A DNA stretch of 64,000 nucleotides from Actinomycetota bacterium. Its GTDB lineage: Bacteria > Actinomycetota > AC-67. Of this stretch, positions 912-59,931 are shown piece by piece. The notes below the pieces were generated by a model. It worked only from the letters and a program-made list of their open reading frames with translations. It searched no databases and was not told where the DNA came from. The stretch's first letter is position 1; the number at the start of each line of letters is the position of its first letter. The position numbers and the translations under genes were made by a program. The stretch lies in assembly GCA_036397635.1 (NCBI GenBank), contig DASWIP010000080.1, positions 37,792 to 101,791 on the forward strand, in the 5' to 3' direction.

Positions 912-913
912 CC

Positions 914-6405: not shown

Positions 6406-6415
6406 GGAGCCGTCG

Positions 6416-20978: not shown

Positions 20979-21871
20979 ACCCGCTCCACTTCCCGGGTGC
21001 CGAAAAGACCATATGGCCGGATCATCAAGACGATCACCATCACGACGTAGGCAGCCACCACGTGGAAGTTGTTGCCGAGCCAGGGCGCGTACTGCGGCTG
21101 ATACCCCTGGCTCAGCACCTCGATCACGCCGATCGCGAGCCCGCCGACCACGGCGCCTCCCGTCGAGTCGAGCCCGCCGAGGATCACGGCGGGGAATGCG
21201 CGCAACGCCACGAAGCCCTTGTCGGGACTGAGGAACTGCGGGTACGCGACCAGGAACATGCCGGCGACGGTCGCCGTCGCGCCGGCGATCGCCCAGGCCA
21301 GCCCGGTCATGCGCCTCACGGAGACGCCGATCGACATGGCGGCCTCCTGGTCGAACGCTGCGGCGCGCATCGCGACGCCGACCTTGGTGTATTTGAAGAA
21401 CAGGAAGAACAGAAGCATGAGCCCGAACGCGGTGAGCAAGGTCGCGACGCTGACCTCGGTGAACCTGATCCCACCGACGGTGTGGACCGCGGTACCCCAG
21501 GGGTTGTCGATACTGCGAGGATCGAAGCCCCAGATGCTGGTTGCGATCTGGCGGACCGCGATCGCGAGGCCGATCGTGATCATCACAACGGCGAAGACCG
21601 GCTTGCCCACCATCGGGCGCAGGATCGTCCGTTCGATGGCGAGTCCCAGCACGCCCATCGACGCCATCGCGATCGGCAGCGCCAAGTAGAACGGGATGCC
21701 CATCTCGTTGCGGAACGTGAACACGAGGTACGCGCCGAACAGCACCAGTTCCCCATGAGCGAAGTTGATGACCTCGGACGATTTGTAGACGATGACGAAG
21801 CCGAGCGCGATCAGCGCGTAGATGCTCCCGAGCACGAGCCCCTGATACAGGAACTGCAGGAACTCGGTCAC
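20975..21871 (-). CDS. livH: Branched-chain-amino-acid-type ABC permease
   Basis: 'VTEFLQFLYQGLVLGSIYALIALGFVIVYKSS...' 298 aa. GTG start overlaps the stop of the upstream acyl-CoA ligase (GTGA). The long N-terminal ORF extension is Arg/His-rich and rejected. Confidence 0.8.
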   Translation of the reverse strand: MTEFLQFLYQGLVLGSIYALIALGFVIVYKSSEVINFAHGELVLFGAYLVFTFRNEMGIPFYLALPIAMASMGVLGLAIERTILRPMVGKPVFAVVMITIGLAIAVRQIATSIWGFDPRSIDNPWGTAVHTVGGIRFTEVSVATLLTAFGLMLLFFLFFKYTKVGVAMRAAAFDQEAAMSIGVSVRRMTGLAWAIAGATATVAGMFLVAYPQFLSPDKGFVALRAFPAVILGGLDSTGGAVVGGLAIGVIEVLSQGYQPQYAPWLGNNFHVVAAYVVMVIVLMIRPYGLFGTREVERV

Positions 21872-33533: not shown

Positions 33534-34679
33534 ATGCGAGACCGCGCCGCGATCGTCGGGATCGGGCAGACCGAGTTCGCCAAGGACATCGGCCGGCCCG
33601 AGCAGCGCATCGCCTTGGAAGCGATCAGCGCGGCGCTTGACGACTCGGGCGTCGGCGCGCACGAGGTCGACGGGCTGGTGAAGTTCTCGCTCGAGAACAC
33701 CATGGAGGTCGACATCGCGCGCAACCTGGGGATGCAGAACCTTCGGTTCTTCGCCGACGTCGCCTACGGCGGCGGCGCCGGGTGCGGCGCGGTCGGTCAC
33801 GCCGCCATGGCGGTCGCCTCGGGACAGGCCGAGGTCGTGGTGGTATGGCGCGCGCGCAACCGCGGTTCGGGTGGCCGGCCGTGGGCGAAGAAGGGCAACC
33901 GGGCCGGCGGCGAGATGCAGTGGTTCCTGCCGTTCGGCCTGTCGCGCCCGGTCGATCAGATCGCGATGCTCGCGCGCCGTCACATGATCGAGTACGGATC
34001 CACGTCCGAGCAGCTCGGCGCCGTCGCCGTCGCGTTCCGCGAGCACGCGCAGCAGAACCCCGCCGCGCTGATGCACGGCCGGCCGATGACGCTGGAGGAC
34101 TACCTTGCGTCGCGCTGGATCTCCGAGCCGCTGCGGCTTTTCGACTGCTGCCTCGAGACCGACGGCGCGCTCGCCGTCGTCGTCACCTCGGCCGAGCGCG
34201 CGCGCGATCTCCGCCGCCCCGCTGCGCTGGTACGCGGCTACGCGCAGGGCACCGGCTCCGAGCACCTGGTGATGGCCAACTATTTCACGCGTGATCCGCT
34301 GGACTCCCCCGGGCATCACGCCGCGCGCGACCTGTGGCGCAACGCCGGCATCGGCCCCGATGAGATCGACTCCGCGCAGATGTACGACGCGTTCACGCCG
34401 CTGATCCTGATCTCGCTCGAGGCGTTCGGCTTCGCCAAACCCGGCGAGGGAGGGCCTTTCGCGGCCGAGGGCAATCTGCGGCTCGGCGGCGCGCTGCCGA
34501 CGAACACGTCGGGAGGCGGCCTGTCCGAGGCCTACGTGCATGGCATGAACCTGATCCTGGAGGGCGCGCGTCAGATCCGCGGCGATTCCGTCAACCAGGT
34601 GGCGGGCTGCGAGACCGTGATGGTGTCCAGCGGTAACGGCGTCCCGACCAGCGCCTTGGTGCTGAGGAAGGACACATGA
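33534..34679 (+). CDS. Thiolase-like protein (SCP2/Ltp-type, non-specific lipid-transfer thiolase)
   Basis: 'AAIVGIGQTEF', condensing-enzyme fold of 381 aa. Followed by a DUF35 partner. Confidence 0.8.
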   Translation: MRDRAAIVGIGQTEFAKDIGRPEQRIALEAISAALDDSGVGAHEVDGLVKFSLENTMEVDIARNLGMQNLRFFADVAYGGGAGCGAVGHAAMAVASGQAEVVVVWRARNRGSGGRPWAKKGNRAGGEMQWFLPFGLSRPVDQIAMLARRHMIEYGSTSEQLGAVAVAFREHAQQNPAALMHGRPMTLEDYLASRWISEPLRLFDCCLETDGALAVVVTSAERARDLRRPAALVRGYAQGTGSEHLVMANYFTRDPLDSPGHHAARDLWRNAGIGPDEIDSAQMYDAFTPLILISLEAFGFAKPGEGGPFAAEGNLRLGGALPTNTSGGGLSEAYVHGMNLILEGARQIRGDSVNQVAGCETVMVSSGNGVPTSALVLRKDT

Positions 34680-35116
34680 GCGAGCAGCCACGACCCAAGG
34701 ATGCCGGGCGTGCAACGGCGCCGCGTCCGATCCCGGATCCGGATGCCGCGAGCGCGCCGTTCTGGGAGGCGGCGGCGCGCCACGAGCTGCTCGTCCAGCG
34801 ATGTGCCGGATGCGGCGAGTTCCGGCATCCACCCCGGCCGATGTGCCCGCGATGCAGCTCCTTCGAGCATACGTGGGAGCGCGCGAGCGGCCGTGCGCGC
34901 GTGTGGTCTTGGGTGGTCGCGCACAACCCCGTGCTGCCGGCATTCGCGGACAGGGTCCCGTACAACGTGGTCGTAGTCGAACTGGACGAAGGCGTGCGGA
35001 TGATCGGGAACCTGCTCGACGTGCCCGTCGATCAGATCAGCGACGGCATGAAGGTGGTCGTGGACTTCGAGGACGTCGAGGATGGCGTCGCGCTCCCCGC
35101 GTGGAGGTGCGTGTGA
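34676..35116 (+). CDS. DUF35 Zn-ribbon/OB-fold protein (thiolase partner)
   Basis: 'CAGCGEFRHPPRPMCPRCSS' zinc ribbon plus OB fold. ATGA overlap with the upstream thiolase. Confidence 0.8.
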   Translation: MSEQPRPKDAGRATAPRPIPDPDAASAPFWEAAARHELLVQRCAGCGEFRHPPRPMCPRCSSFEHTWERASGRARVWSWVVAHNPVLPAFADRVPYNVVVVELDEGVRMIGNLLDVPVDQISDGMKVVVDFEDVEDGVALPAWRCV

Positions 35117-39210: not shown

Positions 39211-39244
39211 GGATGCTACTCGGCCCCTGCTAGCCTCGCGCGCG

Positions 39245-40303
39245 ATGAGACGGGTCGGGATCGTCGCGGTCGCACAGACCGATCATGCGCGCCACCGCGA
39301 CGATGCGACCGCCGCCGAGTTGCTCTATCCGGTGGTCAAAGAGGCCGTCGCCGCGAGCGGGCTCTCGCGCCACGAGATCGACTACACCTGCGCCGCGTCG
39401 TCCGACTTCCTGGAGGGACGGCCGTTCTCGTTCGGCTTCGCGTTGGACGCCGCGGGCGCCGTCCCGCCGATCGAGGAGTCACACATCGAGGGCGACGGCG
39501 CTTGGGCAGCCTACGACGCGTGGGTGCGCATCCAGGCGGGGCTCGCCGATTCTGCGTTGGTCGTGGCCTGGGGCAAGTCGAGCGAGGGATCCCTCCCCCA
39601 CGTGCTGAACGCGACGCTCGATCCGTTCTGGGAGTCGCCACTTGGGCTGGACGCGGTCGCGCTCGCTGCGCTGCAGGCGCAGGCGCTCGGGCTGCCCGAC
39701 GAGCAGCTTCACGCGATCGTCGCGCGTAACCGCGCGGCCGCACGCGCGAACCCGCATGCGCAGATCACCGCCGAGCCCGACCCGGCCTCGCCGTTCATCG
39801 TCGAACCGTTCCGACGCGAGCACCTCCCGCCGATCTCGGACGGCGCGTGCGCGCTCGTGATGGCGGCCGAGGAAGTGCTCGCGCGGCTGGATGCGCCGGT
39901 CGCGTGGATCGGAGCCGCCGCGCATGCATCCGACGCGGCGAGCATCAGCGCGCGCGACCTCACCCTCGCGAGCAGCGCGCGCGCCGCCATCGCCGCCGCG
40001 GACCCGGATCGGGATTGGCGCATGCTGGACGTCGCCGAGGTGATGGCGCCGTTCCCGCACCAGGAGCCGATGCTGCTCGAGGCGTTCAGCATCAACGTCG
40101 GCGCAGTGAACCCCTCGGGTGGCGCGCTCGCCGCGAACCCGATCATGGCGACCGGCCTGGTGCGCCTTGCCGAGGCCGCGCTGCAAGTGACGGGAACGGC
40201 GGGCCTGCGGCAGGTTCCGGGCGCGCGACGCGGGCTCGCGCACGCGACCGCCGGGCACTGCCTGCAATCCAACATCGTGTTCCTGCTGGAGGGAACACCG
40301 TGA
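39245..40303 (+). CDS. Thiolase-like protein (SCP2 type)
   Basis: 'VGIVAVAQTDH' start, condensing-enzyme fold. Confidence 0.7.
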   Translation: MRRVGIVAVAQTDHARHRDDATAAELLYPVVKEAVAASGLSRHEIDYTCAASSDFLEGRPFSFGFALDAAGAVPPIEESHIEGDGAWAAYDAWVRIQAGLADSALVVAWGKSSEGSLPHVLNATLDPFWESPLGLDAVALAALQAQALGLPDEQLHAIVARNRAAARANPHAQITAEPDPASPFIVEPFRREHLPPISDGACALVMAAEEVLARLDAPVAWIGAAAHASDAASISARDLTLASSARAAIAAADPDRDWRMLDVAEVMAPFPHQEPMLLEAFSINVGAVNPSGGALAANPIMATGLVRLAEAALQVTGTAGLRQVPGARRGLAHATAGHCLQSNIVFLLEGTP

Positions 40304-41436
40304 GGCCGGTCGCCGTCCTGGGCGTCGGCCAGACCGACCACGCCAGCGCGCGCACCGACGTGTCGCTGCCGGGCCTGATCCGCGATGCGATCGACCGCGC
40401 GCTGCTCGACGCTGCGTTGGAGCATGACGACATCGACGCGGTGATCCTGGGGACGGCGCCTGACTTCTTCGAGGGCGTGATGCTGCCCGAGTGGTGGCTG
40501 GCCGGCGCGCTCGGCGGCATCGGCAAGCCGGTCCTACGCGTCCACACGATGGGCTCAGTCGGCGGTGCGACCGCGATCACAGCCGCGGCGCACGTCGGCA
40601 GCGGTCTGTTCGAGCGCGTGCTTGCGGTCGGATTCGAGAAACATTCGGAGTCGCAGGCGTTGTGGGGCCTCACGCCGCGCAACCCGTTCGGCCGCACGTT
40701 CGGCGCCGGCGCCGGCGCCGCGTTCGCGCCGATCTGCCGCGCGTATATGCAGCGCCACAGCGCGCCGGCCGAGATCGGGCCGCGCGTCGCGGTGAAGGCG
40801 CGCGCGAACGCGCTGCGGAACCCCCACGCGCATCTGCGCTTGGACCTGACGCTCGACGAGGTGCTCGCGTCGCCGATGCTGTGGGACCCCATCCGGCGCC
40901 TCGAATCCTGTCCGCAATCCGACGGCGCCGTCGCGATGATCTTCGGCGCGGAAACGCATGCGCGCGCCGGCGCCGCATGGGTGCGCGGCGTCTCGACCAT
41001 GGCGGAGGCGCTGTCGTATCCGGGCCGGGACGTGCTGCGCGCGCCGTCGGGCGTCGAGTGCGCGCGGCGCGCGTACGCGCAAGCAGGTATCACGCCGGCC
41101 GACCTGGACGTCGCCGAGATCTACGAGCCCTTCAGCTGGATCGAAGTGCTGCTGTACGAGCTGCTCGGGTTCTGCGAGCCTGGTGAAGGCTGGCGGATGT
41201 TCGACCACGGTGACACCGACCTCGGAGGCCGCCTGCCGGTGAACCCGAGCGGTGGCGTGCTCTCGACCAACCCGATCGGCGCGAGCGGCATGCTCCGCAT
41301 GGCGGAAGCAGCGCTGCAGGTGATGGCCCGCGCCGGCGAGCGGCAGGTGGACGGCGCGCGCACCGCGCTCGGTCACGCCTACGGGGGCACGCTGAGCTAC
41401 CACGCGTGCATGGTGCTGTCGAAGGAGAAACCGTGA
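40300..41436 (+). CDS. Thiolase-like protein (SCP2 type), paralog
   Basis: 'VAVLGVGQTDH'. GTG overlaps the upstream stop. Confidence 0.75.
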   Translation: MRPVAVLGVGQTDHASARTDVSLPGLIRDAIDRALLDAALEHDDIDAVILGTAPDFFEGVMLPEWWLAGALGGIGKPVLRVHTMGSVGGATAITAAAHVGSGLFERVLAVGFEKHSESQALWGLTPRNPFGRTFGAGAGAAFAPICRAYMQRHSAPAEIGPRVAVKARANALRNPHAHLRLDLTLDEVLASPMLWDPIRRLESCPQSDGAVAMIFGAETHARAGAAWVRGVSTMAEALSYPGRDVLRAPSGVECARRAYAQAGITPADLDVAEIYEPFSWIEVLLYELLGFCEPGEGWRMFDHGDTDLGGRLPVNPSGGVLSTNPIGASGMLRMAEAALQVMARAGERQVDGARTALGHAYGGTLSYHACMVLSKEKP

Positions 41437-42362
41437 CCTTCGTCCGCAGGCCGCTCGACATCGAATACCCGTACACGCACTCGACCGGGCCGGTCGTCGG
41501 GCGCGCGCTCGCGGCGCTGCGCGACGGCGTGCTGCTGGGCGCGCGCTGCTTGCAGTGTGGCGCGGTCGGTGTGCCTGCGCGCGACTGGTGCGAGCGCTGC
41601 GGCGGCGCTGTTGCCGACCTGGTGCCGGTCGGCCCCGGCGGCGTGGTGCGCCACGTCGCGCGCGTTCACCGACCGACCGCGCTCGCGCCCACCGTCGAAG
41701 CATGGGCGTTGATCCGGCTCGACGGCGCCGACACGGACCTTCTCTACGCGGTCCGCGGCGACGTGCAGCCGGGGGGGCGCGTGCGTCCAGTCTGGCGTGA
41801 GCAGCGCGCCGGCTCGATCACCGACATCGAAGCCTTCGAGCCAGGCGAGCCCGAGGACGTTTCAGCTGAAACGTCCTCGGCACCGATCGAGATCTTCCAC
41901 CGTCACGTCTCGCTGCCGTTCACCCTGTCCGCGGGCACGCAGCTCAGCCGCTACTACACCGACATCCGCGAGGGCCGCGGCCTGCACGGGGTACGCTGCT
42001 CGCGATGTGACATGGTGCTGGTGCCGCCACGCGAGGCCTGCCCGCGTTGCTGGGCCGACACCGAAGACTGGATCCCGATCCCCGACCGTGGCATCGTCAC
42101 CAGCTTCGTCGTGGTCAACGTGCCGTTCCACGGCCAGCAGATCGAGATCCCGTACGTGCTCGCGTGGGTGCGCCTCGACGGCGCCGACACATCGTTCCTG
42201 CACCTGCTTAGCGAGATCGATCCGTCCGACGCGCGCATGGGCATGCGCGTCGAAGCCGTCTGGCGCGAGCAGCGCTCCGGCTTCCCCAACGACGATATCG
42301 ACCACTTCCGCCCCACCGGCGAGCCCGACGCGCCGCTGTCGGACTTCATCGAAGGGCTCTAG
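41433..42362 (+). CDS. Tandem double DUF35 (Zn-ribbon/OB-fold) protein
   Basis: Two ribbons ('CLQCGAVGVPARDWCERCGG' and 'CSRCDMVLVPPREACPRCW'), each followed by an OB-fold segment. GTG with SD 'GAAGGAG' overlaps the upstream stop. Confidence 0.75.
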   Translation: MTFVRRPLDIEYPYTHSTGPVVGRALAALRDGVLLGARCLQCGAVGVPARDWCERCGGAVADLVPVGPGGVVRHVARVHRPTALAPTVEAWALIRLDGADTDLLYAVRGDVQPGGRVRPVWREQRAGSITDIEAFEPGEPEDVSAETSSAPIEIFHRHVSLPFTLSAGTQLSRYYTDIREGRGLHGVRCSRCDMVLVPPREACPRCWADTEDWIPIPDRGIVTSFVVVNVPFHGQQIEIPYVLAWVRLDGADTSFLHLLSEIDPSDARMGMRVEAVWREQRSGFPNDDIDHFRPTGEPDAPLSDFIEGL

Positions 42363-42526
42363 GACACCACGAAGAGTGCCCGCAACGCCTCGCCCGAGGC
42401 CAAGATGCCGTGGGAACCAATCTGGCAGGAACTAGGCGTCAACTCGTCGAAGCCGACGGCATCGGGAGCCGCCCTTCACGAGAGCGAGGACGGCACGGTC
42501 GGTCGGTGACACAAGTATTCCTGACG

Positions 42527-43348
42527 CTAGCCTGGCAGTTCAGCAATCCACAGAATCGACGAGCCATGAAACGGGCTGGTGGCGATCTCGACCTCATAGC
42601 TCCAGTCGCCCTTAGCGTCGGTTGCGACAGCTGCCCACGGGAACGGTCCAAGGGAGGGATGAATCCGGGGGTCCAGTCCCCACGAGCTATCGCCGTCTCC
42701 ATCTGGCCCCTTGATGGACAGGCTGCCGGCCTTAGAGTGTAGAAGCGCGAATAGGTATCCACCATTCTGACGAACTTCCCTTAGACCGACGGCTGCCGAG
42801 GCTCCCAGGAGTCCGGCACCGGTACCAATGTTGAAGTCGGCTACTGAGTACTGGTAAGCCACGCCTCCTGAGCGACTCGGTTCTGGATCCCCCTCCACCA
42901 GAACGTGGCATTGAATCGTTCCTCCCCAGGAAGCCCAAATGACCCTGAGGCGCGTATTCTCTTCGGATGTTGTCTCACTCATGACCACTGGACGTACGGA
43001 TCCCTCCGTTAACACGACCTGCTGCTTTGCCCCGGTGAGAGTGAGATCAGCCCGCACGCTGAGGTCAGGTTGAATTCCTAGCCATGAGGCGCTGAGGCCT
43101 CCCGCTTCAGCCTCCATGGAATACGCCTGAAAAATCCGGTGCGGCGAGGACTCAGAGTCTCCAGGGACCGTGCACTGCAGCTCCCAATTGGTATCCGCCT
43201 CCGGCAAGAAAGCATCGACGTAACCCACCGGAACTGACAACTGCTCGCGCGTCTCTGGAGCTAAGGGGGCCTTGGCCTGAACAATATGCGGGATTAGCCC
43301 GGCACACAGCGCCAACGCGACCACGGTGATTGCGCCCGGTCGAATCAC
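42527..43348 (-). CDS. Secreted hypothetical protein with atypical codon usage (likely horizontally acquired)
   Basis: Signal peptide 'MIRPGAITVVALALCAGLIPHIVQA'. Frequent TTA/CTA/ATT/AAT/TCT codons and lower local GC than the flanks. Confidence 0.6.
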   Translation of the reverse strand: MIRPGAITVVALALCAGLIPHIVQAKAPLAPETREQLSVPVGYVDAFLPEADTNWELQCTVPGDSESSPHRIFQAYSMEAEAGGLSASWLGIQPDLSVRADLTLTGAKQQVVLTEGSVRPVVMSETTSEENTRLRVIWASWGGTIQCHVLVEGDPEPSRSGGVAYQYSVADFNIGTGAGLLGASAAVGLREVRQNGGYLFALLHSKAGSLSIKGPDGDGDSSWGLDPRIHPSLGPFPWAAVATDAKGDWSYEVEIATSPFHGSSILWIAELPG

Positions 43349-43494
43349 TTGGCCGGCCCCTCATCCAAGTACATGATCACCTTCGCCTTGAGAAGATGCG
43401 AACCAAGTACACAGTCCAATGGAACGGAACGGCCGGCGCATCCCTGGATCCCCCATGACCGGCATGCTTCCCTGCGGATCGGGCAGCTTCCTGC

Positions 43495-44655
43495 TCATCC
43501 GCGGGGCAGGCCGAGCGCGCGCTCAGCCAGGATGTTCTTCTGGATCTCAGTGGTGCCCGCGCCGATCGTTGTCATGCGGCTCCACACCTCGTCGTGCGCC
43601 CACGAGCCGTCGTCGATCGCGTCCGCGTCACCCTTCCAGCGCAGCCCGTCCGGCCCGAACGCGTGCATCGCCGCTTCGGCGAGGTCTTGGGACACCAGGC
43701 TCCAGTGCAGCTTGCCGATCGGAACCTCGGGCCACGGGTCGTCGCCGCGCGCAGCCTTGGTCACAGCGCGCAGCGCCGTCAGCCGGATGATCTGCACGCG
43801 CACGTACAGATCCGCCAGCTCCTGCTGCAGCGCGGCGGCGCGCACCGGATCGGACGGCCACGATTCTTCGTGTGCGAGCAGCTGCTCGAGCCGCTGCCGG
43901 AGGTTGATGCCGTAGGTGACGGTTCCGACGCGCTCGTGCGTGAGCGTCGCCATCGCGACGCGCCACCCGTCGCCCTCGTCGCCGAGCCGGTCGACGACCG
44001 GCGCGCGCACCTCGGTGAAGAACACCTCGTTGAACTCGGTCCCGCCGGTGATCTCGCGCAGCGGCCGCACCTCGACGCCGGGCGCGCGCATGTCCACCAC
44101 GATCATCGACATGCCGCGGTGTCGCTGCTCGGACGGATCGGAGCGGCACAGCAGCAAGCATCGATCCGAACGGTTCGCGCGAGAGATCCACACCTTCTGC
44201 CCGGTGATCACGTACGCGTCGCCGTCGCGTTCGGCACGAGTCGCGAGCGCCGCGAGGTCGCTGCCGGCGCTCGGCTCGCTGAAGCCTTGGCACCAGATCT
44301 CGTCGGCGGCGAGCATCGGCGGCAGCCAGCGTTGGAGCTGCTCGTCGGTGCCGTACTCGAGGATCGCCGGGCCGATGTTCCACACGCCGATCGAGTTGAT
44401 CACCGTGGGCGCGCGCGCCTCGGCCAGTTCTTCTTGGTAGATGACTCGTTGCGCGACCGAGGCTTCGCGGCCGCCCCACGCGCGCGGCCAGCCGGGCGCG
44501 ACCCAACCGGCGTCGGCGAGACGCCGTTGCCACGCGCGCCTGAACTCGAATGCGTCGTCGGCATCGCCGGGGAGCGGGCCGGGATGGTTCGCGGCGAGCC
44601 ACGCGCGTAGCTCCGCACGGAACGCGGCATCCTCGGGAGTGTCGTCGAAATCCAT
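43495..44655 (-). CDS. Acyl-CoA dehydrogenase
   Basis: ACAD N/M/C domain pattern and C-terminal 'GAGTTEIQKNILAER'. Confidence 0.8.
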   Translation of the reverse strand: MDFDDTPEDAAFRAELRAWLAANHPGPLPGDADDAFEFRRAWQRRLADAGWVAPGWPRAWGGREASVAQRVIYQEELAEARAPTVINSIGVWNIGPAILEYGTDEQLQRWLPPMLAADEIWCQGFSEPSAGSDLAALATRAERDGDAYVITGQKVWISRANRSDRCLLLCRSDPSEQRHRGMSMIVVDMRAPGVEVRPLREITGGTEFNEVFFTEVRAPVVDRLGDEGDGWRVAMATLTHERVGTVTYGINLRQRLEQLLAHEESWPSDPVRAAALQQELADLYVRVQIIRLTALRAVTKAARGDDPWPEVPIGKLHWSLVSQDLAEAAMHAFGPDGLRWKGDADAIDDGSWAHDEVWSRMTTIGAGTTEIQKNILAERALGLPRG

Positions 44656-44873: not shown

Positions 44874-45812
44874 TCACGGTGCGTCGTGGAGGGCCGCCCA
44901 GATCGCGGCGACTAACCTCTCCGGGCGCGCGAGGTCCCTCCAGGTGACATGGATGACCCGCCAGCCGAGCAGCGTCAGCGCGTTGCGCCGTGCCAGGTCG
45001 TGCTCCCAGGGCATGCGGCCGGAGTGCCACCGGTAGCTGTCCGCCTCGATCGCCAGCCGGGCATCGGGGAACGCGAAGTCCACCACGGCTACGGTCCGCC
45101 CACCGCTCCTGATCCGGTACTGGGGAAGCGGTTCGGGCAGACGGGCGCGCCGCAGGACCCGCAGCAGCCGCGACTCCAGGACGCTCTCCGGAGGAGGATC
45201 CGAGGGAGCGCGCGCTTCGAGCAGGGCGCGCATCACTGCGATGCCGGGCCGTCCTCGCTGGTCTCCACGGACGTGCCAGCGCATGCGCGCGATGGAGACG
45301 AGGCGGCGGCGGAGCGCGTCGTCCAGCGCCTCCTCGACCGCATCTCTCGACGCCACCGCCGCGATGTCGATCAGCGTGCGCGCCGGAACGGTCACGGGGA
45401 TCGCCTCCACGATCGTCACGTCTCCGGCCGGAAGAGCGTTCCGATGCACGATCCCGGGTGCGATGCGGTCCCGGCGCCGGGGCACCGTCAGCTCGATCGG
45501 CCCCGGCTCGAAGCCTGCGAGACGAGGCAAGGCGGCAGCCGCGCGATGCGACGCGACGGCGCCGTCACCCCACGCGAGGCAAGCCGCAAGCAGAGACTGG
45601 CGCCATGACGGCGGGACCCCGGCGAGCCGGAACACCCCGCTCGCGCATCGCTCCCACCGGCCCACCTCGAGCCGGTGGTCGATGAAGCCACGCGTAGCGC
45701 CGAGTTCCCTCAGCTGTGCCCGCGTGAAGACCCCGTGCTGGCGTTCCGCAAGGCGCGCCACGCCCGCATCCCCCCGAGCTTGTCCGAGTTCTGCAGGTTG
45801 TACTGGCACCAT
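44874..45812 (-). CDS. DUF559 / AbiEi-N-like domain protein (Vsr-fold endonuclease-like family, multi-copy in actinobacteria)
   Basis: N-terminal 'FTRAQLRELGATRGFIDHRLEVGRWERCASGVFRLAG', C-terminal DUF559-like 'VDFAFPDARLAIEADSYRWH'. Confidence 0.7.
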   Translation of the reverse strand: MVPVQPAELGQARGDAGVARLAERQHGVFTRAQLRELGATRGFIDHRLEVGRWERCASGVFRLAGVPPSWRQSLLAACLAWGDGAVASHRAAAALPRLAGFEPGPIELTVPRRRDRIAPGIVHRNALPAGDVTIVEAIPVTVPARTLIDIAAVASRDAVEEALDDALRRRLVSIARMRWHVRGDQRGRPGIAVMRALLEARAPSDPPPESVLESRLLRVLRRARLPEPLPQYRIRSGGRTVAVVDFAFPDARLAIEADSYRWHSGRMPWEHDLARRNALTLLGWRVIHVTWRDLARPERLVAAIWAALHDAP

Positions 45813-45939: not shown

Positions 45940-47136
45940 TTAGGCCGATGCGACCACGCGCGCGGGACGGAAGCGGACGGGGAGGCGGTTGGGCGAGCGG
46001 AACGCGTCCCCTTGGATGTACGTCTCGCCGCCGTCCGCGTCCAGCCGCAGGTCCTCCAGCCGATCGAGCAGCGCGTTCATCGCCGTGGTCACCTCCGCGC
46101 GCGCGAGGTGCTCGCCCAGGCAGCGATGCGGCCCTTCGGCGAACGCGAGGTGCGGCGCGCGCACCGCGAACAGGTCGTAGCGGTCCGGATCCTCGAACAC
46201 CGCCTCATCCCTGTTGGCCGAGCCGAGCACCAATCCGATGTGCGCGCCGGCGGGGATCACGGCCGCACCCACCTCGACGTCGCGGGTCGTCATCCGCTCG
46301 ATGAACTGCACCGGGGTCTCCCAGCGCAGCGCCTCCTCGATCGCGGCGGGTAGAAGGTCACGCTGATCCCGTACGGCGTCGAGCTGCCGCGGGTCGTGCA
46401 GCAGCGCGAACAGCAGGGAGCCGAGCAACCGGTAGGTGGTCTCGGCGCCGGCCGGCAGCAGCAGCCGCAGGAACCCAAAGATCTCCTCGTCGGGCAAGGG
46501 CCGCCCGTCGATCTCGGCCCCGGCAAGCTCGCCGATGAGATCCTCGCGTGGGTCGCGACGACGCTGCTCGACGATCGGCGCGAGGTAGGAGCGCATCTCC
46601 TCGGCGGCCTGCAATCCGATCGAGGTCTCCGAGAGCCCGAGCATCGCGATCGACAGCCGAACGAACCGTGGATACTCCTCTCGCGGGATCCCGAGCAACT
46701 CGGCGATGATCTGGATGGGATAGCGGATCGTCACCTCCGAGACCAGCTCGGCGCGCCCGTGTCCGGCGATGCGGTCGATCAGGTCGTGGATCGTCGGCTC
46801 GATCAGGGTGGGCAGCACCCGCTCGATCGCGCGCCGGCGGAAGGTGCCGCCGATCAGCGCGCGATGCTGCTGATGCTCGGCGCCGTCCATCTGCAGGATC
46901 GACGGGCCGAACGCCAGACCGACCGAGTCCTCGTAGCCGCGCGACGAGAATGTCTGCGGGTCACGCAGCATCCGCTCCACGTCGGCGTAGCGGAAGATGG
47001 TGAACCACGCTCCCGCCGGATCCTGCTGCATCACCGGATCCTCCCGGCGCGCCCAGGCGTAATCCGGGTAGGGATCGCGCGCGTCGCCGACCGCGAGCTT
47101 GATCAGCGCGTCGAGGTCGTCGGGCCAGTCGCTCAC
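45940..47136 (-). CDS. Cytochrome P450
   Basis: Heme-ligand loop 'FAEGPHRCLGEHLA' and 'ETLR'-equivalent 'EEALRWETP'. Confidence 0.85.
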   Translation of the reverse strand: MSDWPDDLDALIKLAVGDARDPYPDYAWARREDPVMQQDPAGAWFTIFRYADVERMLRDPQTFSSRGYEDSVGLAFGPSILQMDGAEHQQHRALIGGTFRRRAIERVLPTLIEPTIHDLIDRIAGHGRAELVSEVTIRYPIQIIAELLGIPREEYPRFVRLSIAMLGLSETSIGLQAAEEMRSYLAPIVEQRRRDPREDLIGELAGAEIDGRPLPDEEIFGFLRLLLPAGAETTYRLLGSLLFALLHDPRQLDAVRDQRDLLPAAIEEALRWETPVQFIERMTTRDVEVGAAVIPAGAHIGLVLGSANRDEAVFEDPDRYDLFAVRAPHLAFAEGPHRCLGEHLARAEVTTAMNALLDRLEDLRLDADGGETYIQGDAFRSPNRLPVRFRPARVVASA

Positions 47137-48359
47137 GACGGCGAGAACCTGATCGGGACGCAGTTGGGCGAACGGAACGCGTAGCCGAGCACATGAGGGT
47201 CGCGTCCATCAGCGTCCAGCCGCAGATCCGGCAGCCGGTCGAGCAGCACGTCCAGCGAAACCGCCGCTTCGAGCCTGGCCAGATGCTCACCCAGGCAGCG
47301 GTGCACCCCGTCGCCGAACGCGACGTGGGGCGGCGGACCAGTCCGAGACAGATCGTAGGCGTCGGGGGCGTCGTAGCGAGCCTCGTCCCGGTTCGAGGCG
47401 CCCAGGTTCACGAACACCGGGGTTCCCTCCGCGATCGCGACCCCGGCCAGTTCGGTGTCCCGAGTCGCCTCGCGCATCGCGAACTGCACCGGCGCCTCCC
47501 AACGCAGCGACTCCTCGACCGCTTTCGCGATCAGGCTCCGGTCGGCGCGCACGGCCTCCAGCCGCGACGGCTGCTCGAGCAGCGCGAGCGTCATCGAGCC
47601 GAGCAGCCGATACGTGGTCGCCGCGCCCGCCGGGATCAGCAGTCGCAGGAACCCGTGGATCAGATCCTCGGGAAGCTTCTGCCCGTCGAGCTCAGCGGTG
47701 ACCAGATCGCTGATCACGTCATCGCCGGGCGCGGCGCGGCGCTGCTCGATCACGGTCGCGAAGTAGGCTTCGGCTTCCTTGGCGGCCGCGACGGCGCGAT
47801 CCCAGTCCACCGCGGCGCTCTCGAGCGATACCGCCCAGCGCTGCCAGCGCTCGAGATCGATCGCCGGCACGCCCAGGATCTGCGCGAAGACGCGCACCGG
47901 CACCTGCCAGGTGAACTCGCGCACCAGCTCGGCGTCGCCGCGCGCGGCGAACCGGTCGATGGCCTCGTGGGCGACCGGACGGATCAGGGTCTCCTCCCAC
48001 TGCTTGACCACGGTCGGCCGGAAGGCGTGCCCGATCAGCTTGCGGTGCACGAAATGCTCGCGGCCGTCCATCTCCAGGATCGTTCGCCCGAGCAGCGGTC
48101 GCATCCACGCGCCGTTGATCCGCGCCGAGAAGGTCTCCTCGTCGCGCAGGACGATCGATGCGACGTCGTAGGAGAAGACCATCGTGACCGGCACGCCCAG
48201 ATGCTTCGCCGGCGCGACCGGGGACGCGCGCCGAGCCTCGTGGTAGCGCGGGTACGGGTCGCGATCGTCGCCGATGTTGGCGGCGAGCAGATCGACCTCG
48301 CCGGTCGCCGACGCCCCCGGCTGGTCGGTCGCCCCGGGCACTGGCTGGTCGGTCGCCAC
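47133..48359 (-). CDS. Cytochrome P450 (tandem paralog)
   Basis: 'FGDGVHRCLGEHLA', 'EESLRWEAP'. ATGA overlap with the downstream P450. Confidence 0.85.
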   Translation of the reverse strand: MATDQPVPGATDQPGASATGEVDLLAANIGDDRDPYPRYHEARRASPVAPAKHLGVPVTMVFSYDVASIVLRDEETFSARINGAWMRPLLGRTILEMDGREHFVHRKLIGHAFRPTVVKQWEETLIRPVAHEAIDRFAARGDAELVREFTWQVPVRVFAQILGVPAIDLERWQRWAVSLESAAVDWDRAVAAAKEAEAYFATVIEQRRAAPGDDVISDLVTAELDGQKLPEDLIHGFLRLLIPAGAATTYRLLGSMTLALLEQPSRLEAVRADRSLIAKAVEESLRWEAPVQFAMREATRDTELAGVAIAEGTPVFVNLGASNRDEARYDAPDAYDLSRTGPPPHVAFGDGVHRCLGEHLARLEAAVSLDVLLDRLPDLRLDADGRDPHVLGYAFRSPNCVPIRFSPS

Positions 48360-48427: not shown

Positions 48428-49510
48428 GTGACCGAGCCCCTCACCCCGATCTACGACGAGCCCGTCCGCGGCACCTACCCCTCACTGGCGTGGCTCGGGC
48501 TGCACGGTCGGGACCGGATGAGCACTGGCCGCGCGCTGAAGATCCCCCGTCCCCCCATGCATCACCTCACCGGTCTGCGTCCGGTCGCGATCGAGCAGGA
48601 CGAGGTCGCCTGGGAACTGCCGGCGAGCCCCTGGTTCCAGACCGCGGCCGGCCCGTTCCTCGGCGGAATCTCGGCGCTCGCGGCCGACGCACCCCTGGGC
48701 GGAGTCCTGTTCCCGCACCTCGAGCCCGGCGCCTACCCCACCTCCTCGGAGCTGTCGATGAGCTTCCTGCGCCCCGCCGGGGTCGCCAGCGAGAAGCTGG
48801 TGGCGCGCGCGCGCCTGATCGATGTCGGCCGCACCCAGGGGCTGTCGGAGGCGACCGTGGCGGACGCGCGCGGCCGTGTCGTCGCGCACATGACCTCCCG
48901 GTTGTTCATCAAGACCATCACCCCGGTGCCCGGCCCACCGGACGAACTCACGCTGCCCGAGCAACCCGTCTACGACACGCCCGATCCGTGGGAGCGCCCG
49001 CTTCCGGCGGCGCTCGGGCCCCTGCGCGCCGGGGAAACCTCGGGCATCGACGCGCTCCGCAGGATCGCCTCGGGCGAGTCGCCCGGCGGCCCGTTCATGC
49101 ATCTGTTCGGGATGCGTCTAACGGAAGCGGAGGAAGGCTCGGTGCGGCTGGTGATCCACGCGAGCGAATGGCTCAACAGCGCGGCGCGCGCCATCTACGG
49201 TGGCTTCCTCGCCCTGTTCGTCGACGCGGCGATGACCTTCGCGGTCACCTCGACCATCCCCGCCGGCGGCTCGTGCGCCGCGCTCGACGTCAAGGTGCAT
49301 TTCCTCCGGCCGGGGATCGCCGACGGGCGCGAGCTGGAATGCCGCGCGTTCGTGGTGCATCGGGGGCGCCGGTTCGCGGTGACGCAGGCCGAGCTGCTCA
49401 ACCCTGATGGCAAGCCGGTCGTGATCGCGAGCGGCTCGTCGATGGTCCTCGCCGATCGGCCCTGGGGCTCGATCGTGATCGCCGACGAGGACTCGCCGGG
49501 CGACGACTAG
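48428..49510 (+). CDS. Tandem hotdog-fold (PaaI-type) thioesterase
   Basis: Two PaaI-like halves ('...HLTGLRPVAIEQDEVAWELPA...' and '...HLFGMRLTEAEEGSVRLVIHASEW...'). GTG start. Confidence 0.65.
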   Translation: MTEPLTPIYDEPVRGTYPSLAWLGLHGRDRMSTGRALKIPRPPMHHLTGLRPVAIEQDEVAWELPASPWFQTAAGPFLGGISALAADAPLGGVLFPHLEPGAYPTSSELSMSFLRPAGVASEKLVARARLIDVGRTQGLSEATVADARGRVVAHMTSRLFIKTITPVPGPPDELTLPEQPVYDTPDPWERPLPAALGPLRAGETSGIDALRRIASGESPGGPFMHLFGMRLTEAEEGSVRLVIHASEWLNSAARAIYGGFLALFVDAAMTFAVTSTIPAGGSCAALDVKVHFLRPGIADGRELECRAFVVHRGRRFAVTQAELLNPDGKPVVIASGSSMVLADRPWGSIVIADEDSPGDD

Positions 49511-50340
49511 CTCTCGTAGCCTGCGTCGCGATCGCGGAAGACGTCCTTCATCGAACCTTTCTGCTGGCGAGCAGCGAGCGCGTCCAGCGACGTCTTGGTG
49601 TTGTGCTGGAACTGGTGGACCATGAAGTGGTACTCGAGCGCCGCGCGGTACCCACCGAGGTCCATCGCGTGATTGACCGAGCGCTTGATGTTCTGCGCGG
49701 TGATCGCCGGCAGCCGCGCCACCTTCTCGGCCAGCTCGAACGTCGCCTCCTCCAGCAGCGCGCGCGGCACCACCCGGTTCACGAACCCGAGCCGGTGTGC
49801 CTCGGGAGCCTCCAACGCGTCGCCGGTGAACAGCAACTCCTTCGCCTTCCGCGGTCCCAACTCGATCTCCGCGAGCAGCTCCACCCCCGCCGCCGTCATG
49901 CGCGCGACCGGGTTCTGGAACACCGCGTCGTCGGCGCACACGATCAGGTCGCACATCGCCGCGAGCATCCATCCGGCAGCGACCACGTGGCCCTGCACCA
50001 TCGCGATCGTCGGCGTGCGCAGGTCGCGGATCGCTAGGCATTTGTCGAAGTACTGGGTGCGTTCGTGGTCGAACTTGCCCTCGGGCGTCAGTCGCTTCTC
50101 GTGCCACTCGTCGGCGGGCGCTTCGCCGACGTAGGCCTTCAAGTCGTGCCCAGAGGACCAGTGGTCGCCGGCACCGGCCAGCACGATCACTCGAACGTCC
50201 GGGTCACGGTCGGCGACGCGCATCGCGTCGTCCAGCTCGTCGATCAGCGCGGTGTTCTGCGCGTTGCGCACCTCGGGCCTGTTCATGGTCACCAGCTCGA
50301 TGGCGCCGCGCCGCTCGACCAATAACGTCTGGTAGCCCAT
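49507..50340 (-). CDS. Enoyl-CoA hydratase/isomerase-family protein
   Basis: 'VTMNRPEVRNAQN', 'GAGDHWSSGHDL'. ATG at 50340 with SD 'GGGGAGGA'. The longer ORF extension is low-complexity. Confidence 0.75.
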   Translation of the reverse strand: MGYQTLLVERRGAIELVTMNRPEVRNAQNTALIDELDDAMRVADRDPDVRVIVLAGAGDHWSSGHDLKAYVGEAPADEWHEKRLTPEGKFDHERTQYFDKCLAIRDLRTPTIAMVQGHVVAAGWMLAAMCDLIVCADDAVFQNPVARMTAAGVELLAEIELGPRKAKELLFTGDALEAPEAHRLGFVNRVVPRALLEEATFELAEKVARLPAITAQNIKRSVNHAMDLGGYRAALEYHFMVHQFQHNTKTSLDALAARQQKGSMKDVFRDRDAGYES

Positions 50341-50531
50341 CAATCCTCCCCGGCCCAACGGCGCTGGATCTGCTGCTCGCGCACGCGGCAGGACCTCTCG
50401 AGCGCCCCCGACGCTCGCGCCAGCTCGCGTGCCTCCTCGAACCAGCGCACGCGCTCCTGAACCGGAAGACGCGCGATCTCGCGCAGTTGCGCGCGTCGGT
50501 GCTCGTCCCACGACACCGGCCAGTCACTCAC
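50340..50531 (-). CDS. Small Arg/Glu-rich hypothetical protein (63 aa)
   Basis: GC3-rich codons. GTG start overlaps the NTase stop. Its stop overlaps the hydratase ATG, and its 3' end encodes the hydratase SD. Confidence 0.4.
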   Translation of the reverse strand: MSDWPVSWDEHRRAQLREIARLPVQERVRWFEEARELARASGALERSCRVREQQIQRRWAGED

Positions 50532-51015
50532 GTTGATGTATCGCCTCCAGCGCTTCGATATCGGCCAGGTCTTGGTGCCGTCCGGCCGCGCGTTTCATCG
50601 CGAGCAAGTGCTCGAGTGACACGATACGCGTTTCCGTGACTCCGTAGGGAACAACGATCGACGACGCCCACATCTCCTGGAACGGGAACGGCTCCTCGAC
50701 GAACACGTCCACCCTGCGGGTGAGGTCGTGAACGTCTCTCATGGGGAAGGCCTGCATGTTCCGCTCATCGATCCAGCGTCGTCGCGTCTCAGGATCTGCG
50801 AACGATGCGGCGTCGACAGGTACCGAGGGCGTGAGCCCCAGCCCACTGAGAGCATCCATCGTCCGCCGGGCGTTATCGGGCTCCAGGTCGACGATGAGAT
50901 CAACGTCAAGCGTCAGGCGAGCGTGCCCATGCAGGACCACGGCCAGGCCGCCGACGACCAGGTAGCGCACCCGGGCCTCGTTCAGCGATCGGAGCAGCTC
51001 CTCGACGAAGGTCAC
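50524..51015 (-). CDS. Minimal nucleotidyltransferase-fold protein
   Basis: 'VVGGLAVVLHGHARLTLDVDLIV' (GG...hG..R.T.DxD NTase motif). C-terminal 'HLLAMKRAAGRHQDLADIEALE'. Confidence 0.6.
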   Translation of the reverse strand: MTFVEELLRSLNEARVRYLVVGGLAVVLHGHARLTLDVDLIVDLEPDNARRTMDALSGLGLTPSVPVDAASFADPETRRRWIDERNMQAFPMRDVHDLTRRVDVFVEEPFPFQEMWASSIVVPYGVTETRIVSLEHLLAMKRAAGRHQDLADIEALEAIHQRE

Positions 51016-54330: not shown

Positions 54331-54390
54331 CGCGCTGTATCCGGTCGAGCTGACCGGAACAGGCTCCGACTGCGCGAGCTGGACCCGTCG

Positions 54391-54777
54391 ATGACCGACG
54401 CCGTCTGGCCGATCGTCGCCGAGGAGACGCAGATCTTCGGTCCCCCGGGCTTCGCCCGCACGCGCGAGGAACTCCGTGACTGGCTGCTCGAGCAGCGCTC
54501 CGCCGCGCGCGCGCCCATCTACCGCGGGCGAGGCTACGCCGCCGAAGCCGCGCCGCTGGTCGTCGGCTTCGGTTTCGAGCAGCTCTCCCTTCGGCGCTTC
54601 GACGCGCTGATCGAACCGTACAACCGCGACGTCGATGAGGGTGGCCGAACAGCTCGGGATGCGACGCGACGAGGTGCTCGAGGGCGTGATCGAGACCGGA
54701 CCCGGCGAGTCGAGGAACGCTGTCCGCTACTCGCTCGTCCGTCGGGGAGGCGCCGATATTTCCTGAGGAGATGTGCG
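54391..54777 (+). pseudogene. Decayed GNAT (RimJ/RimL-like) acetyltransferase remnant
   Basis: Frame 1 carries 'GRGYAAEAAPLVVGFGFEQLSLRRFDALIEPYNRD'. The +1 frame continues 'SMRVAEQLGMRRDEVLEGVIETGPGESRNAVRYSLVRRG'. Motif A is missing, so there is a frameshift plus an internal deletion. Confidence 0.5.
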
Positions 54778-54866
54778 CACTTCAGCGCAGCACGTCCGCC
54801 GTATCCCCAGCTATGCTCGCCGCGCCGGCCCGCAGCCGGCTTCGTTCCGGAAGGGGGTGAACGATC

Positions 54867-55121
54867 ATGCGACGATCCGTCGCGGTCATGCTCTTGACGG
54901 TTGTATTCATCTTCGGGTTGGGTGCGGCTTCGGCCTCGGCCGTCCCGTTGCACCAGCACCAACTGACAACGCCCAATGGCAAGCAAGTGCTGGTAGCTGA
55001 TGGGTTCTGCCGGGTGCCGGAGATCTTCGGCGAGGGAGGACGCGCCCATCAGGCGCTCCACAATTTCCACCAGCACGTCCACCTGGGGAGCCCACCCGTA
55101 GGCTTGGCGTTCTTCTGCTAG
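54867..55121 (+). CDS. Small secreted His-rich hypothetical protein
   Basis: SD 'AAGGGGGTGA', signal peptide 'MRRSVAVMLLTVVFIFGLGAASASA'. 84 aa. Confidence 0.45.
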   Translation: MRRSVAVMLLTVVFIFGLGAASASAVPLHQHQLTTPNGKQVLVADGFCRVPEIFGEGGRAHQALHNFHQHVHLGSPPVGLAFFC

Positions 55122-55191
55122 ACCTTCACATCTGAGCCGGGCCCGCGAGCCAATCGCGGACCCGGCTCGATGGGCGCGCTAGCCTGGGCTC

Positions 55192-58323: not shown

Positions 58324-58770
58324 TCAGGCCTCCTCGGCGGGGCGGAACTTCGGCAGCCGCAGCGGCTGGTGGAACGCGTCCTCGAGCTGCTCGTCGAACC
58401 AGACCTTGACCGGCATCCCGATCCGAACGCTTTCGGCCGGGCAGTCGGTCACGTTGCTGGTGATGATCGGCCCCTCGTCGAGCTCGACGTCGGCCACGAC
58501 GTAGGGAACCTCGTCGGCGAACGAGGGATGGAATGCGTGTCGCACGACCGTGAAGCTGAACACAGTGCCGTGCCCCGACGCCGGCTGCCAGGACAGATCC
58601 TGGGACAGACAGCTCGAGCAGCACGGCCCACCCGGCAGCTGCCGGTTGCCGCATGCCCCGCACACCTGGATGCGCAGCTGCTCGACCAGCGTGCCTTCCC
58701 AGAAGCCGCGCGTCTCGTCGATCACCACGGGCGAGGTGCCCATCACCAGCTCGGTCAGCGTGTGGGCCAT
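58324..58770 (-). CDS. DUF35 Zn-ribbon/OB-fold protein
   Basis: 'CGACGNRQLPGGPCCSSC'. Abuts the ACAD start. Confidence 0.75.
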   Translation of the reverse strand: MAHTLTELVMGTSPVVIDETRGFWEGTLVEQLRIQVCGACGNRQLPGGPCCSSCLSQDLSWQPASGHGTVFSFTVVRHAFHPSFADEVPYVVADVELDEGPIITSNVTDCPAESVRIGMPVKVWFDEQLEDAFHQPLRLPKFRPAEEA

Positions 58771-58773
58771 CGG

Positions 58774-59931
58774 TCACCGCACCTCGTTGGTTACGATCAG
58801 CGTGGCGTGCGCGGCCTGGAACCCGCCGTGGCCCGAGACGACGCAGACCTCGGCGGCCGGAACCTGCCGCTCGCCGCACGCACCGCGGATCTGGCGCGCC
58901 GCTTCGGCCAGATGGTTCCAGCCGGTCATGTTCGCTTCCGACAGCATCCCGCCGGAGGTGTTCACGGGCAGCGCGCCTCCGAGCATCAGGTTCCCCTCGA
59001 GCGCGAACGGTCCGGCCTCCCCCTTCTTGCAGAAACCGTAGTCCTCCAACGTGATCAGCACGGTCGAGGTGAAACAGTCGTAGAGCTGCGCCACATCGAC
59101 GTCCTCGGGGCCGATGCCCGCCATGGCGTAGGCGCGCGCCGAGGACCGCGCGCCGGCGAAGTGCGTGTAGTGCGTGGGGTCTCGGAAGCCGTCGAGGTTG
59201 TCGCCGGCGCCCATCCCGGCGATATACGCCGGCGGCTGCCGCAGATCTCGCGCGCGCTCCGCGCTGGTGACGACCAGGGCGACGGCGCCGTCGCTTGCGG
59301 CGATCGTGCAATCGAGCACCCGCAGCGGCTCGGCCACATAGCGCGACGCGAGGTACTCCTCCATCGTCAGGGGATCTCGATAGGTAGCGGCCGGGTTCAG
59401 CGAGGCGTGACGGCGACAGGCGATCGCGACCGAGCCGAACATCTCGGCGGTGACGCTGTACTCGCGCATGTATCGCATCGCGCTGCGCGCCTCCATCACC
59501 GGCCCCCCGGCCATCCCGTAGGCGATCTCGTCGGCCTGACCCCGCCCCATCTGCGCGAGCCCGAACAGCATCGGCATCCCGGTCTTGGCGTTCTCGCCGA
59601 ACACGCACAACGCCACCTCGCACATCCCCGCATGGATCGCCATCGCGGCCTCCTGCACCAGCGAGATCGCCGTCGCGCCGCCGATCGACTTGGTCGACAG
59701 GTAGTTCGTCCGCAGCCCGAGCATGCGCCCGAGCACGTGCCCGTGCAACAGCAATGGCTCGGAGAACTGCGACTCGGTGAACAGCCCGTCGACGTCGTCC
59801 TTGGTCAGTCCCGCGTCCTCCAGCGCGAGACGCGCGGCCTCGGCCTGCAGGCTCCACGCCGAGCGTCCCGGCAGCTTGCCGAACGCAGTGGTGCCGACGC
59901 CGGCGATCGCGGTGTCCCCGGAGATGCTCAT
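58774..59931 (-). CDS. Thiolase-like protein (SCP2 type)
   Basis: 'TAIAGVGTTAFGK', 385 aa condensing-enzyme fold. Confidence 0.8.
   Translation of the reverse strand: MSISGDTAIAGVGTTAFGKLPGRSAWSLQAEAARLALEDAGLTKDDVDGLFTESQFSEPLLLHGHVLGRMLGLRTNYLSTKSIGGATAISLVQEAAMAIHAGMCEVALCVFGENAKTGMPMLFGLAQMGRGQADEIAYGMAGGPVMEARSAMRYMREYSVTAEMFGSVAIACRRHASLNPAATYRDPLTMEEYLASRYVAEPLRVLDCTIAASDGAVALVVTSAERARDLRQPPAYIAGMGAGDNLDGFRDPTHYTHFAGARSSARAYAMAGIGPEDVDVAQLYDCFTSTVLITLEDYGFCKKGEAGPFALEGNLMLGGALPVNTSGGMLSEANMTGWNHLAEAARQIRGACGERQVPAAEVCVVSGHGGFQAAHATLIVTNEVR

Follow-up and report, generated by a model that had tools for sequence, protein, structure and literature searches.

What is a gene for a putative secreted protein, with a base composition unlike that of its surroundings, doing inside a catabolic gene cluster of a high-GC actinobacterium? 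The question is raised by an open reading frame (ORF) at positions 42527..43348 of a 64,000-nucleotide stretch of Actinomycetota DNA (contig DASWIP010000080.1), to which we refer as the window. The ORF lies on the minus strand, begins with a GTG codon, and encodes 273 amino acids of an undescribed protein family. We found that the low-GC segment around it is best explained as a single-gene foreign segment that has taken the place of an enoyl-CoA hydratase (ECH) gene and whose product would be an exported all-beta binder unrelated to the coenzyme A (CoA) pathway encoded next to it. We put the probability of this reading at roughly three in four.

The ORF lies in a sharply bounded low-GC islet

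We compared the ORF with 58 other genes of the window, picked by the usual high-GC frame signature; the baseline for all composition values is thus the 64-kb window and not the whole genome. The GC contents of the ORF at the three codon positions (GC1/GC2/GC3) were 0.65/0.52/0.63. The reference genes had a GC3 of 0.876 ± 0.029 with a minimum of 0.779, which places the ORF at z = -8.7. The codon adaptation index (CAI), built on the window's own genes, was 0.345 for the ORF as compared to 0.694 ± 0.045 for the reference (z = -7.7). The first-pass annotation, made from the letters alone, had flagged this ORF without giving its strand and had named six A/T-ending codons as characteristic of it. 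All six were enriched per 1000 codons relative to the reference genes: ATT (10 codons, 36.8 versus 0.4), CTA (5, 18.4 versus 1.6), TTA (2, 7.4 versus 0.4), AAT (3, 11.0 versus 1.1), TCT (2, 7.4 versus 1.5), and GGA (13, 47.8 versus 10.9). The ORF therefore lies far outside the normal codon variance of the 58 genes.

The deviation extends to the DNA around the coding sequence. Local GC dropped to 0.56-0.64 over ~42350-43450 and was ~0.70 on either side, in agreement with the interval of ~42400-43350 that had been pointed out earlier. The islet, as delimited by the stop codon of a DUF35 gene on the left and that of an acyl-CoA dehydrogenase (ACAD) gene on the right, spans 42363..43494 (1,132 base pairs, no strand assigned). 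Its GC content was 0.604 as compared to 0.70 in both flanking genes, and the 1132-bp interval with the lowest GC in the entire 64 kb, starting at 42341, overlaps it (0.602; mean 0.688, standard deviation 0.025). The islet also showed a dinucleotide relative-abundance distance of 0.186, ranking first among 629 intervals (mean 0.073, standard deviation 0.025). The non-coding flanks inside the islet were low in GC as well (0.64 and 0.60). Measured against the 64-kb baseline, the segment has the composition of a horizontally acquired genomic islet.

The islet is bounded by the genes named in the first-pass annotation: a pair of thiolase-like genes with a DUF35/ChsH2-type gene on one side and an ACAD gene on the other. 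The thiolase-like genes are of the SCP-x type and lie in tandem on the plus strand (~39218-40303 and ~40300-41436). They are followed by the last gene of the triad, at 41433..42362 on the same strand (GC3 0.87), which in Pfam carries a tandem double DUF35 (zf-ChsH2 and OB_ChsH2_C). The ACAD gene (43495..44655, minus strand, GC3 0.89) encodes all three ACAD Pfam domains and lies upstream of the ORF.

The slot holds other genes in syntenic relatives

The same gene in the same context was found on two JGI contigs, one of which (L002) was 100% identical in its DNA, while the other (L001) was 99.79% identical with zero differences inside the ORF. In the GTDB species set, the best ACAD match reached only 49% identity; the 80 loci at ≤49%, mostly from Solirubrobacterales, showed no synteny with the window, and the set held no close relative. 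Orthologues of the DUF35 protein at 60-66% identity led to three contigs (L083, L085, and L087), all of which keep the thiolase-thiolase-DUF35 order on one side of the slot and an orthologous ACAD (64-73% identical) on the other. A metagenome scan yielded the closest relative found, L098, with an ACAD 84% identical in amino acids and 83% in nucleotides and a DUF35 protein 77% identical in amino acids. Across the four relatives, the amino acid identities thus range from 60 to 77% for the DUF35 protein and from 64 to 84% for the ACAD.

The content of the slot between these two orthologues varied. In L083 it is a single gene, for a 112-amino acid hypothetical protein, and in L085 there are three, for a hydrolase, a melibiase, and a protein with a tRNA-editing domain. 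L087 has a crotonase-type ECH (10918-11646, GC3 0.91) and L098 an ECH gene (457-1206, plus strand). The slot genes of L083, L085, and L087 all have native GC3 (0.87-0.94). The two slot ECHs are 60% identical and orthologous, and they lie on the strand opposite to the foreign ORF. As demonstrated by blastn, DNA homology between L098 and the window reaches the DUF35 stop at 42362 and resumes at the ACAD stop at 43495, with nothing alignable in between (the blastn matches stop at 42363 and start again at 43493), and a tblastn search of L098 with the 273-amino acid protein gave no match. The window contains no orthologue of the slot ECH, the best match being 36% identical (6425-7186) and paralogues lying at 6260-7207 and 49507-50511, and we detected no significant remnant of an ECH or of other slot genes within 42300-43560. 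Thus, none of the four relatives found (L083, L085, L087, and L098) has the gene in the syntenic slot, and its position is not conserved in synteny.

The ORF encodes a predicted exported protein

The reading frame of the ORF contains no stop across 42527-43348, as against 8-12 in each of the other five frames. By our own arithmetic, at 60% GC one expects ~0.032 stops per codon, or ~9 in 273 codons, and the five other frames agree with this number; the absence of stops from the ORF frame thus contradicts a chance ORF. A Shine-Dalgarno-like GAGGGG, read from the minus-strand sequence, lies at 43357..43362 (minus strand), 8 nucleotides upstream of the GTG, and would serve as the ribosome-binding site.

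The N terminus reads V/M-IRPGAITVVALALCAGLIPHIVQA, continuing with KAP after the predicted cleavage point. We assigned it by rules on n-region charge, h-region hydrophobicity, and small residues at positions -3 and -1, and these predict a type I signal peptide; that the ORF has a signal peptide had been proposed earlier. The predicted Sec-type signal peptide comprises residues 1-25 (43274..43348, minus strand). It has a single arginine (Arg3) in the n-region and the h-region AITVVALALCAGLI, with a Kyte-Doolittle mean of 2.77 over 10 residues; cleavage is predicted after V-Q-A, in front of the lysine (residues 23-26). Residues ~5-23 form the only strongly hydrophobic segment of the product, and the mature protein would be acidic, with ~26 kDa and an isoelectric point of ~4.6. 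A bacterial lipoprotein was considered and rejected: there is no lipobox, the sole N-terminal cysteine lies in A-L-A-L-C15 with an unfit leucine at -1, and Cys15 is not conserved across the family described below. Judged by these features of the sequence, the ORF is a genuine coding gene for a putatively exported protein.

Neither a scan for promoter-like and terminator-like signals around the ORF nor folding of the downstream spacer gave anything above shuffled controls. The ORF has the same orientation as the ACAD gene and starts 146 nucleotides downstream of it. Given the shared strand, the short gap, and the lack of a detected terminator, transcripts of the ACAD gene may read through into the ORF.

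The product belongs to a rare and divergent family

Searches of Pfam, NCBIfam, PHROGs, and PDB sequences gave no match for the ORF, apart from a meaningless hit to NCBIfam SsaO (E = 0.08). When 5.8 billion proteins were searched by word index, the sole match was the protein itself, in JGI metagenomes. Exhaustive phmmer against 1.84 billion representatives, in turn, recovered 17 proteins at E ≤ 1e-3. These are the query, 15 true homologues, and P0130, which we rejected as a spurious match to a repetitive adhesin. The true homologues share 26-37% identity and have 156-281 amino acids, most of them 238-281. The best, P0122, matches with E = 7.6e-21 over residues 42-272, and the nearest homologue is 34% identical. 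Within the family, pairwise identities are 17-40%. The word-indexed search with a profile of the family alignment (A1, 16 sequences) recovered three proteins only.

Six residues are invariant in A1: W141, G142, C147, P215, G247, and W249. No sequence that spans the column of C59 lacks this cysteine. The recurrent motifs are LRxAWASWGxxxxC, DFxxGxG, GYLFA, GPxG, GxWxY, and LWIxELP. The hallmark W-A-S-W-G (residues 138-142) is encoded at 42923..42937, the invariant Cys147 that follows it at 42908-42910, and the conserved Cys59 at 43172-43174, all on the minus strand. Full-length members also carry an N-terminal segment with n-, h-, and c-regions of a signal peptide. When the ORF and the 15 homologues were searched together, Pfam gave nothing except one CBM_35 at E = 0.027, and a profile search of the PDB gave nothing below E = 0.15. 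The named members come from Actinomycetota metagenome-assembled genomes; there was no family match by tblastn in plasmid and phage collections, and no member in the GTDB loci from the ACAD scan. On the strength of these alignments, we assign the product to a rare, very divergent, and so far undescribed family of predicted secreted proteins.

Family members often differ in composition from their neighbors

We compared GC3 at eight other independent loci that bear a family member. It was clearly below that of the neighboring genes in L088 (0.69 versus 0.81 and 0.89), L089 (0.63 versus a median of 0.84), L092 (0.76 versus 0.87-0.97), and L095 (0.64 versus a median of 0.79), and slightly below in L091 (0.56 versus 0.64 in a single neighbor). 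The member in L094 (0.75) is an outlier only with its three co-oriented low-GC3 genes set aside, against native genes at 0.89-0.95. The members in L096 (0.80, neighbors' median 0.80) and L097 (0.93, neighbors' median 0.90) are compositionally native. Thus, the member is a GC3 outlier at about six of the eight loci and native-like at two. The two native cases imply that low GC3 is not a functional requirement of the family; a family that can use native codons, and yet often looks foreign, favors transfer over selection for rare codons.

Three of these loci have a context of their own. In L094 (2652-6593), the member P0127 ends a run of four genes that share an orientation and have GC3 of 0.70-0.75, between genes at 0.89-0.95. 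Of the three genes besides the member, at least two code for hypothetical proteins whose N termini look like signal or lipoprotein sequences, and the whole run is possibly an operon for exported proteins that was acquired by transfer. In L095 (4433-11919), P0126 is part of a sub-island of low GC3 (0.64-0.71), next to a gene for a 1337-amino acid secreted protein of unassigned function. Its surroundings, with resolvase, RadC, HTH_17, DUF6308/RNase H, and DNA polymerase III beta genes, are clearly mobile DNA. In L092 (8001-9430), P0124 lies downstream of three alpha-amylase/GH31 genes and directly upstream of a PhdYeFM antitoxin/PIN toxin pair. We found no conserved partner gene and no neighbor common between contexts among the nine family loci, and no non-coding DNA shared between the islet and the other loci.

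The product is modeled as an all-beta protein

AlphaFold2 with the family alignment produced an all-beta model of ~16 strands, with a predicted local distance difference test (pLDDT) score of 76.8 and a predicted template-modeling score of 0.76; the pLDDT of the single-sequence model was 32.6. Foldseek comparisons with the PDB and BFVD gave template-modeling scores of at most 0.31 with root-mean-square deviations mostly >13 Å and were discarded. By sequence profile, the protein does not fall within the galectin/ConA-like families. The invariant columns of A1 consist only of tryptophan, glycine, cysteine, and proline, with no invariant aspartate, glutamate, histidine, lysine, or arginine, and this favors a structural or binding function over an enzymatic one. 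The presence of two conserved cysteines in an exported protein suggests a Cys59-Cys147 disulfide that would stabilize it. We therefore propose, tentatively and at somewhat less than even odds, that the product is a Sec-exported, disulfide-stabilized beta-sandwich that binds an extracellular or envelope ligand and has no part in the cytoplasmic CoA-thioester pathway. It would then have an extracellular function, as a binding or structural protein resembling lectins, and not an enzymatic one. An enzyme of the CoA pathway was rejected, as the protein matches no enzyme family, carries a signal peptide, is not conserved with the cluster, and has homologues in unrelated contexts.

The alternative to a binder would be a secreted enzyme with a ConA-like or jelly-roll fold, for example a polysaccharide lyase or glycoside hydrolase. 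We regard it as unlikely: the restricted set of invariant residues just described speaks against it, no glycoside hydrolase or lyase family was matched by sequence, and the family contexts are not consistently carbohydrate-related. A broader idea, speculative and only marginally better placed, is that the fast-evolving family supplies high-GC Actinomycetota with secreted accessory proteins, its genes moving one at a time as promoterless cassettes into slots at the ends of operons and its products acting in conflict or recognition at the cell surface. If this were true, the products would serve, for example, in phage-receptor masking, superinfection exclusion, or inter-microbial binding, by means of a two-lobed beta-sandwich unlike any solved structure.

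A foreign gene in the probable place of a lost hydratase gene

Four observations that do not depend on codon usage lead us to horizontal acquisition: the dinucleotide signature, the low-GC flanks, the absence of the gene from the slot in relatives, and the existence of homologues with native composition. The presence of an ECH in the slots of L098 and L087, together with the break of homology exactly at the two stop codons, further points to the exchange of an ECH segment for a foreign gene. In the most economical reading, the ancestral order would have been thiolase-thiolase-DUF35-ECH facing ACAD, and the ECH segment would have been exchanged for the foreign gene in the lineage of the window. 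Acquisition is bracketed between the split from the L098 lineage (ACAD 83% identical in nucleotides) and the spread of the sampled population, in which the gene is identical in three contigs. Thus, of the recent horizontal acquisition claimed in the first-pass annotation, the transfer is supported, while "recent" is narrowed to this bracket.

Several points weigh against this reading. The borders of the islet show no integrase or transposase, no direct repeats, and no target-site duplication, and no recombinase gene is adjacent to it; the Rfam and tRNA scans of the whole window were empty, so that there is no tRNA in it; and an AbiEi/DUF559-like gene 1.4 kb from the islet is not a recombinase. 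No donor was found, as the nearest homologue is 34% identical and the 100% copies represent the same locus in other samples, and plasmid and phage collections held no matches for the islet gene. The slot varies among relatives, and the order of losses and gains is deduced from only two ECH-bearing relatives. The compositional contrast is drawn against 64 kb and not against a genome. Last, no promoter or terminator was detected at the ORF.

The alternative that the gene is native, its A/T-ending rare codons being kept by selection for low expression or for translational control of the TTA type, can draw on the two TTA and ten ATT codons of the ORF and on the lower GC3 of members than of neighbors in most family loci, which is readable as a family trait. 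TTA rare-codon control is exemplified by bldA in Streptomyces. However, the non-coding flanks are low in GC as well, and nowhere in the window does the dinucleotide signature, in which base composition is normalized out, deviate more. Members at fully native GC3 exist (0.80 in L096 and 0.93 in L097), and the gene is missing from the slot in four relatives, two of which have an ECH there. We consider a native gene with selected codons to be quite improbable.

An ancestral gene that was lost in the relatives, and whose composition drifted in the window under relaxed selection and AT-biased mutation, fares slightly worse still. Among the relatives, only L098 and L087 agree in what the slot contains, so turnover is frequent and losses must occur. 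Yet an orthologous ECH occupies the slot, on the opposite strand, in both the closest (L098) and a more distant (L087) relative. The ORF itself is intact and has kept its signal peptide and all family-invariant residues, unlike a decaying gene, and a GC3 drop of 0.25 within 1.1 kb, with sharp edges at the stops, is unlike a regional mutation effect.

That the ORF is no gene at all, having arisen by chance in a low-GC spacer or being what is left of a decayed gene, is suggested by the lack of Pfam, NCBIfam, PHROG, and PDB-sequence matches, by the word-indexed search that returned only the protein itself, and by the single-sequence pLDDT of 33, but is effectively refuted by the homologues with conserved motifs (E down to 7.6e-21) and the family-alignment model (pLDDT 76.8), as well as by zero stops where ~9 are expected and the other frames have 8-12.

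Other features of the surrounding cluster

Thiolase-like enzymes partner with DUF35 proteins in steroid and bile-acid side-chain degradation, as in Ltp2-ChsH2 and Sal-Shy (PMC12329534, PMC11321319). By analogy, the cluster around the islet appears to be one of lipid- or steroid-type side-chain degradation, with the substrate being predicted. The wider window contains further thiolase/DUF35 pairs, ACADs, an ECH, a 4HBT thioesterase, an amidohydrolase, and CoA ligases. The DUF35 protein at 41433-42362, which is paired with two thiolase-like genes, consists of two halves with ~38% identity and contains two zf-ChsH2 stretches; single-DUF35/thiolase pairs are found at 33534-35116 and 58324-59931.

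Beyond the ACAD gene lie the AbiEi/DUF559-like gene and then two cytochrome P450 genes. The former (44874-45812, minus strand, GC3 0.82) encodes AbiEi_4/AbiEi_1 N-terminal domains and an MTES_1575/DUF559-like C terminus. L083, L085, and L087 instead carry at this position an AMP-binding CoA ligase gene divergent from ACAD. The gene is thus a second accessory gene or a rearrangement beside the islet. The tandem P450 genes (45940-48359, minus strand) are paralogues with 47% amino acid identity. Over 12.5 kb, the window and L001 differ at 26 nucleotides, 24 of which fall at 46380-47732 within the P450 genes; by gene, there are 18 nucleotide and 3 amino acid differences in 45940-47136 and 5 nucleotide differences and 1 amino acid difference in 47133-48359. 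Strain variation or recombination has a local hotspot in the P450 pair.

Three further places in the window stand out. A DUF6036/AbiEii-like nucleotidyltransferase gene (50524-51015, minus strand) has the lowest GC3 of the reference genes (0.78), and a 63-amino acid ORF is called beside it in L001; it is a probable toxin-antitoxin-type insert in the catabolic cluster. Positions 54331-55191 form an 861-bp gap without a normal high-GC3 gene. An ORF at 54391-54897 (plus strand, GC3 0.72), with a partial match to the GNAT domain Acetyltransf_3 (positions 55-126 of 138), is possibly a remnant, either truncated or foreign. The 889 bp at 20979-21867 (GC 0.65), which separate an ACAD-like gene region from an AMP-binding ligase gene, gave no convincing gene and no Rfam or tRNA match.

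Comparison with known systems

The transfer of the ORF is a fairly ordinary single-gene event and not very surprising, as transfers of hypothetical secreted proteins are common. What the analysis adds is the strand of the ORF, the extent of the islet, the reality of the gene, evidence for the replacement of an ECH, and the patchy, often foreign-looking distribution of the family. As a clean and sharply bounded case, in which a foreign gene would have displaced an ECH from a catabolic operon without scars of a mobile element, the locus is a useful case study of turnover at the end of an operon. The family is of interest in its own right: it is rare (15 true clusters among 1.84 billion), is a recurrent compositional outlier, and has no representative in Pfam, NCBIfam, or the PDB.

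The islet gene shares with the slot ECHs of L098 and L087 only its position between the DUF35 and ACAD genes. Those ECHs lie on the opposite strand, have native GC3, are cytoplasmic pathway enzymes, and bear no sequence relation to the 273-amino acid protein. The resemblance to the Ltp2-ChsH2 and Sal-Shy systems, likewise, belongs to the flanking cluster, with its SCP-x-type thiolase-like and DUF35 genes, ACADs, ECHs, and P450s, and not to the ORF, which has nothing in common with these proteins. As compared to galectin, C1q, GOLD, and ConA-like sandwiches (4agg_A, 4d7y_A, and 7rrm_C), the predicted protein has 6-8% identity over ~40% of its mature length and no profile match.

Phage morons are single accessory genes inserted between conserved genes, and the islet gene differs from them in that it does not lie in a prophage, has no phage or PHROG match, and shows no promoter or terminator of its own. 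It resembles them as one extra gene of atypical composition between conserved genes that encodes an accessory protein of a secreted or surface type. Acquired islets of atypical composition are understood within the amelioration framework of Lawrence and Ochman. Here, in contrast to such islets, there is one gene in 1.1 kb without integrase, tRNA, repeats, or any other sign of mobility, and it sits in the place of a pathway gene, the ECH, instead of being a pure insertion. It shares with them the sharp drop in GC and GC3, the deviant codons and dinucleotides, the absence from syntenic relatives, and the variable slot.

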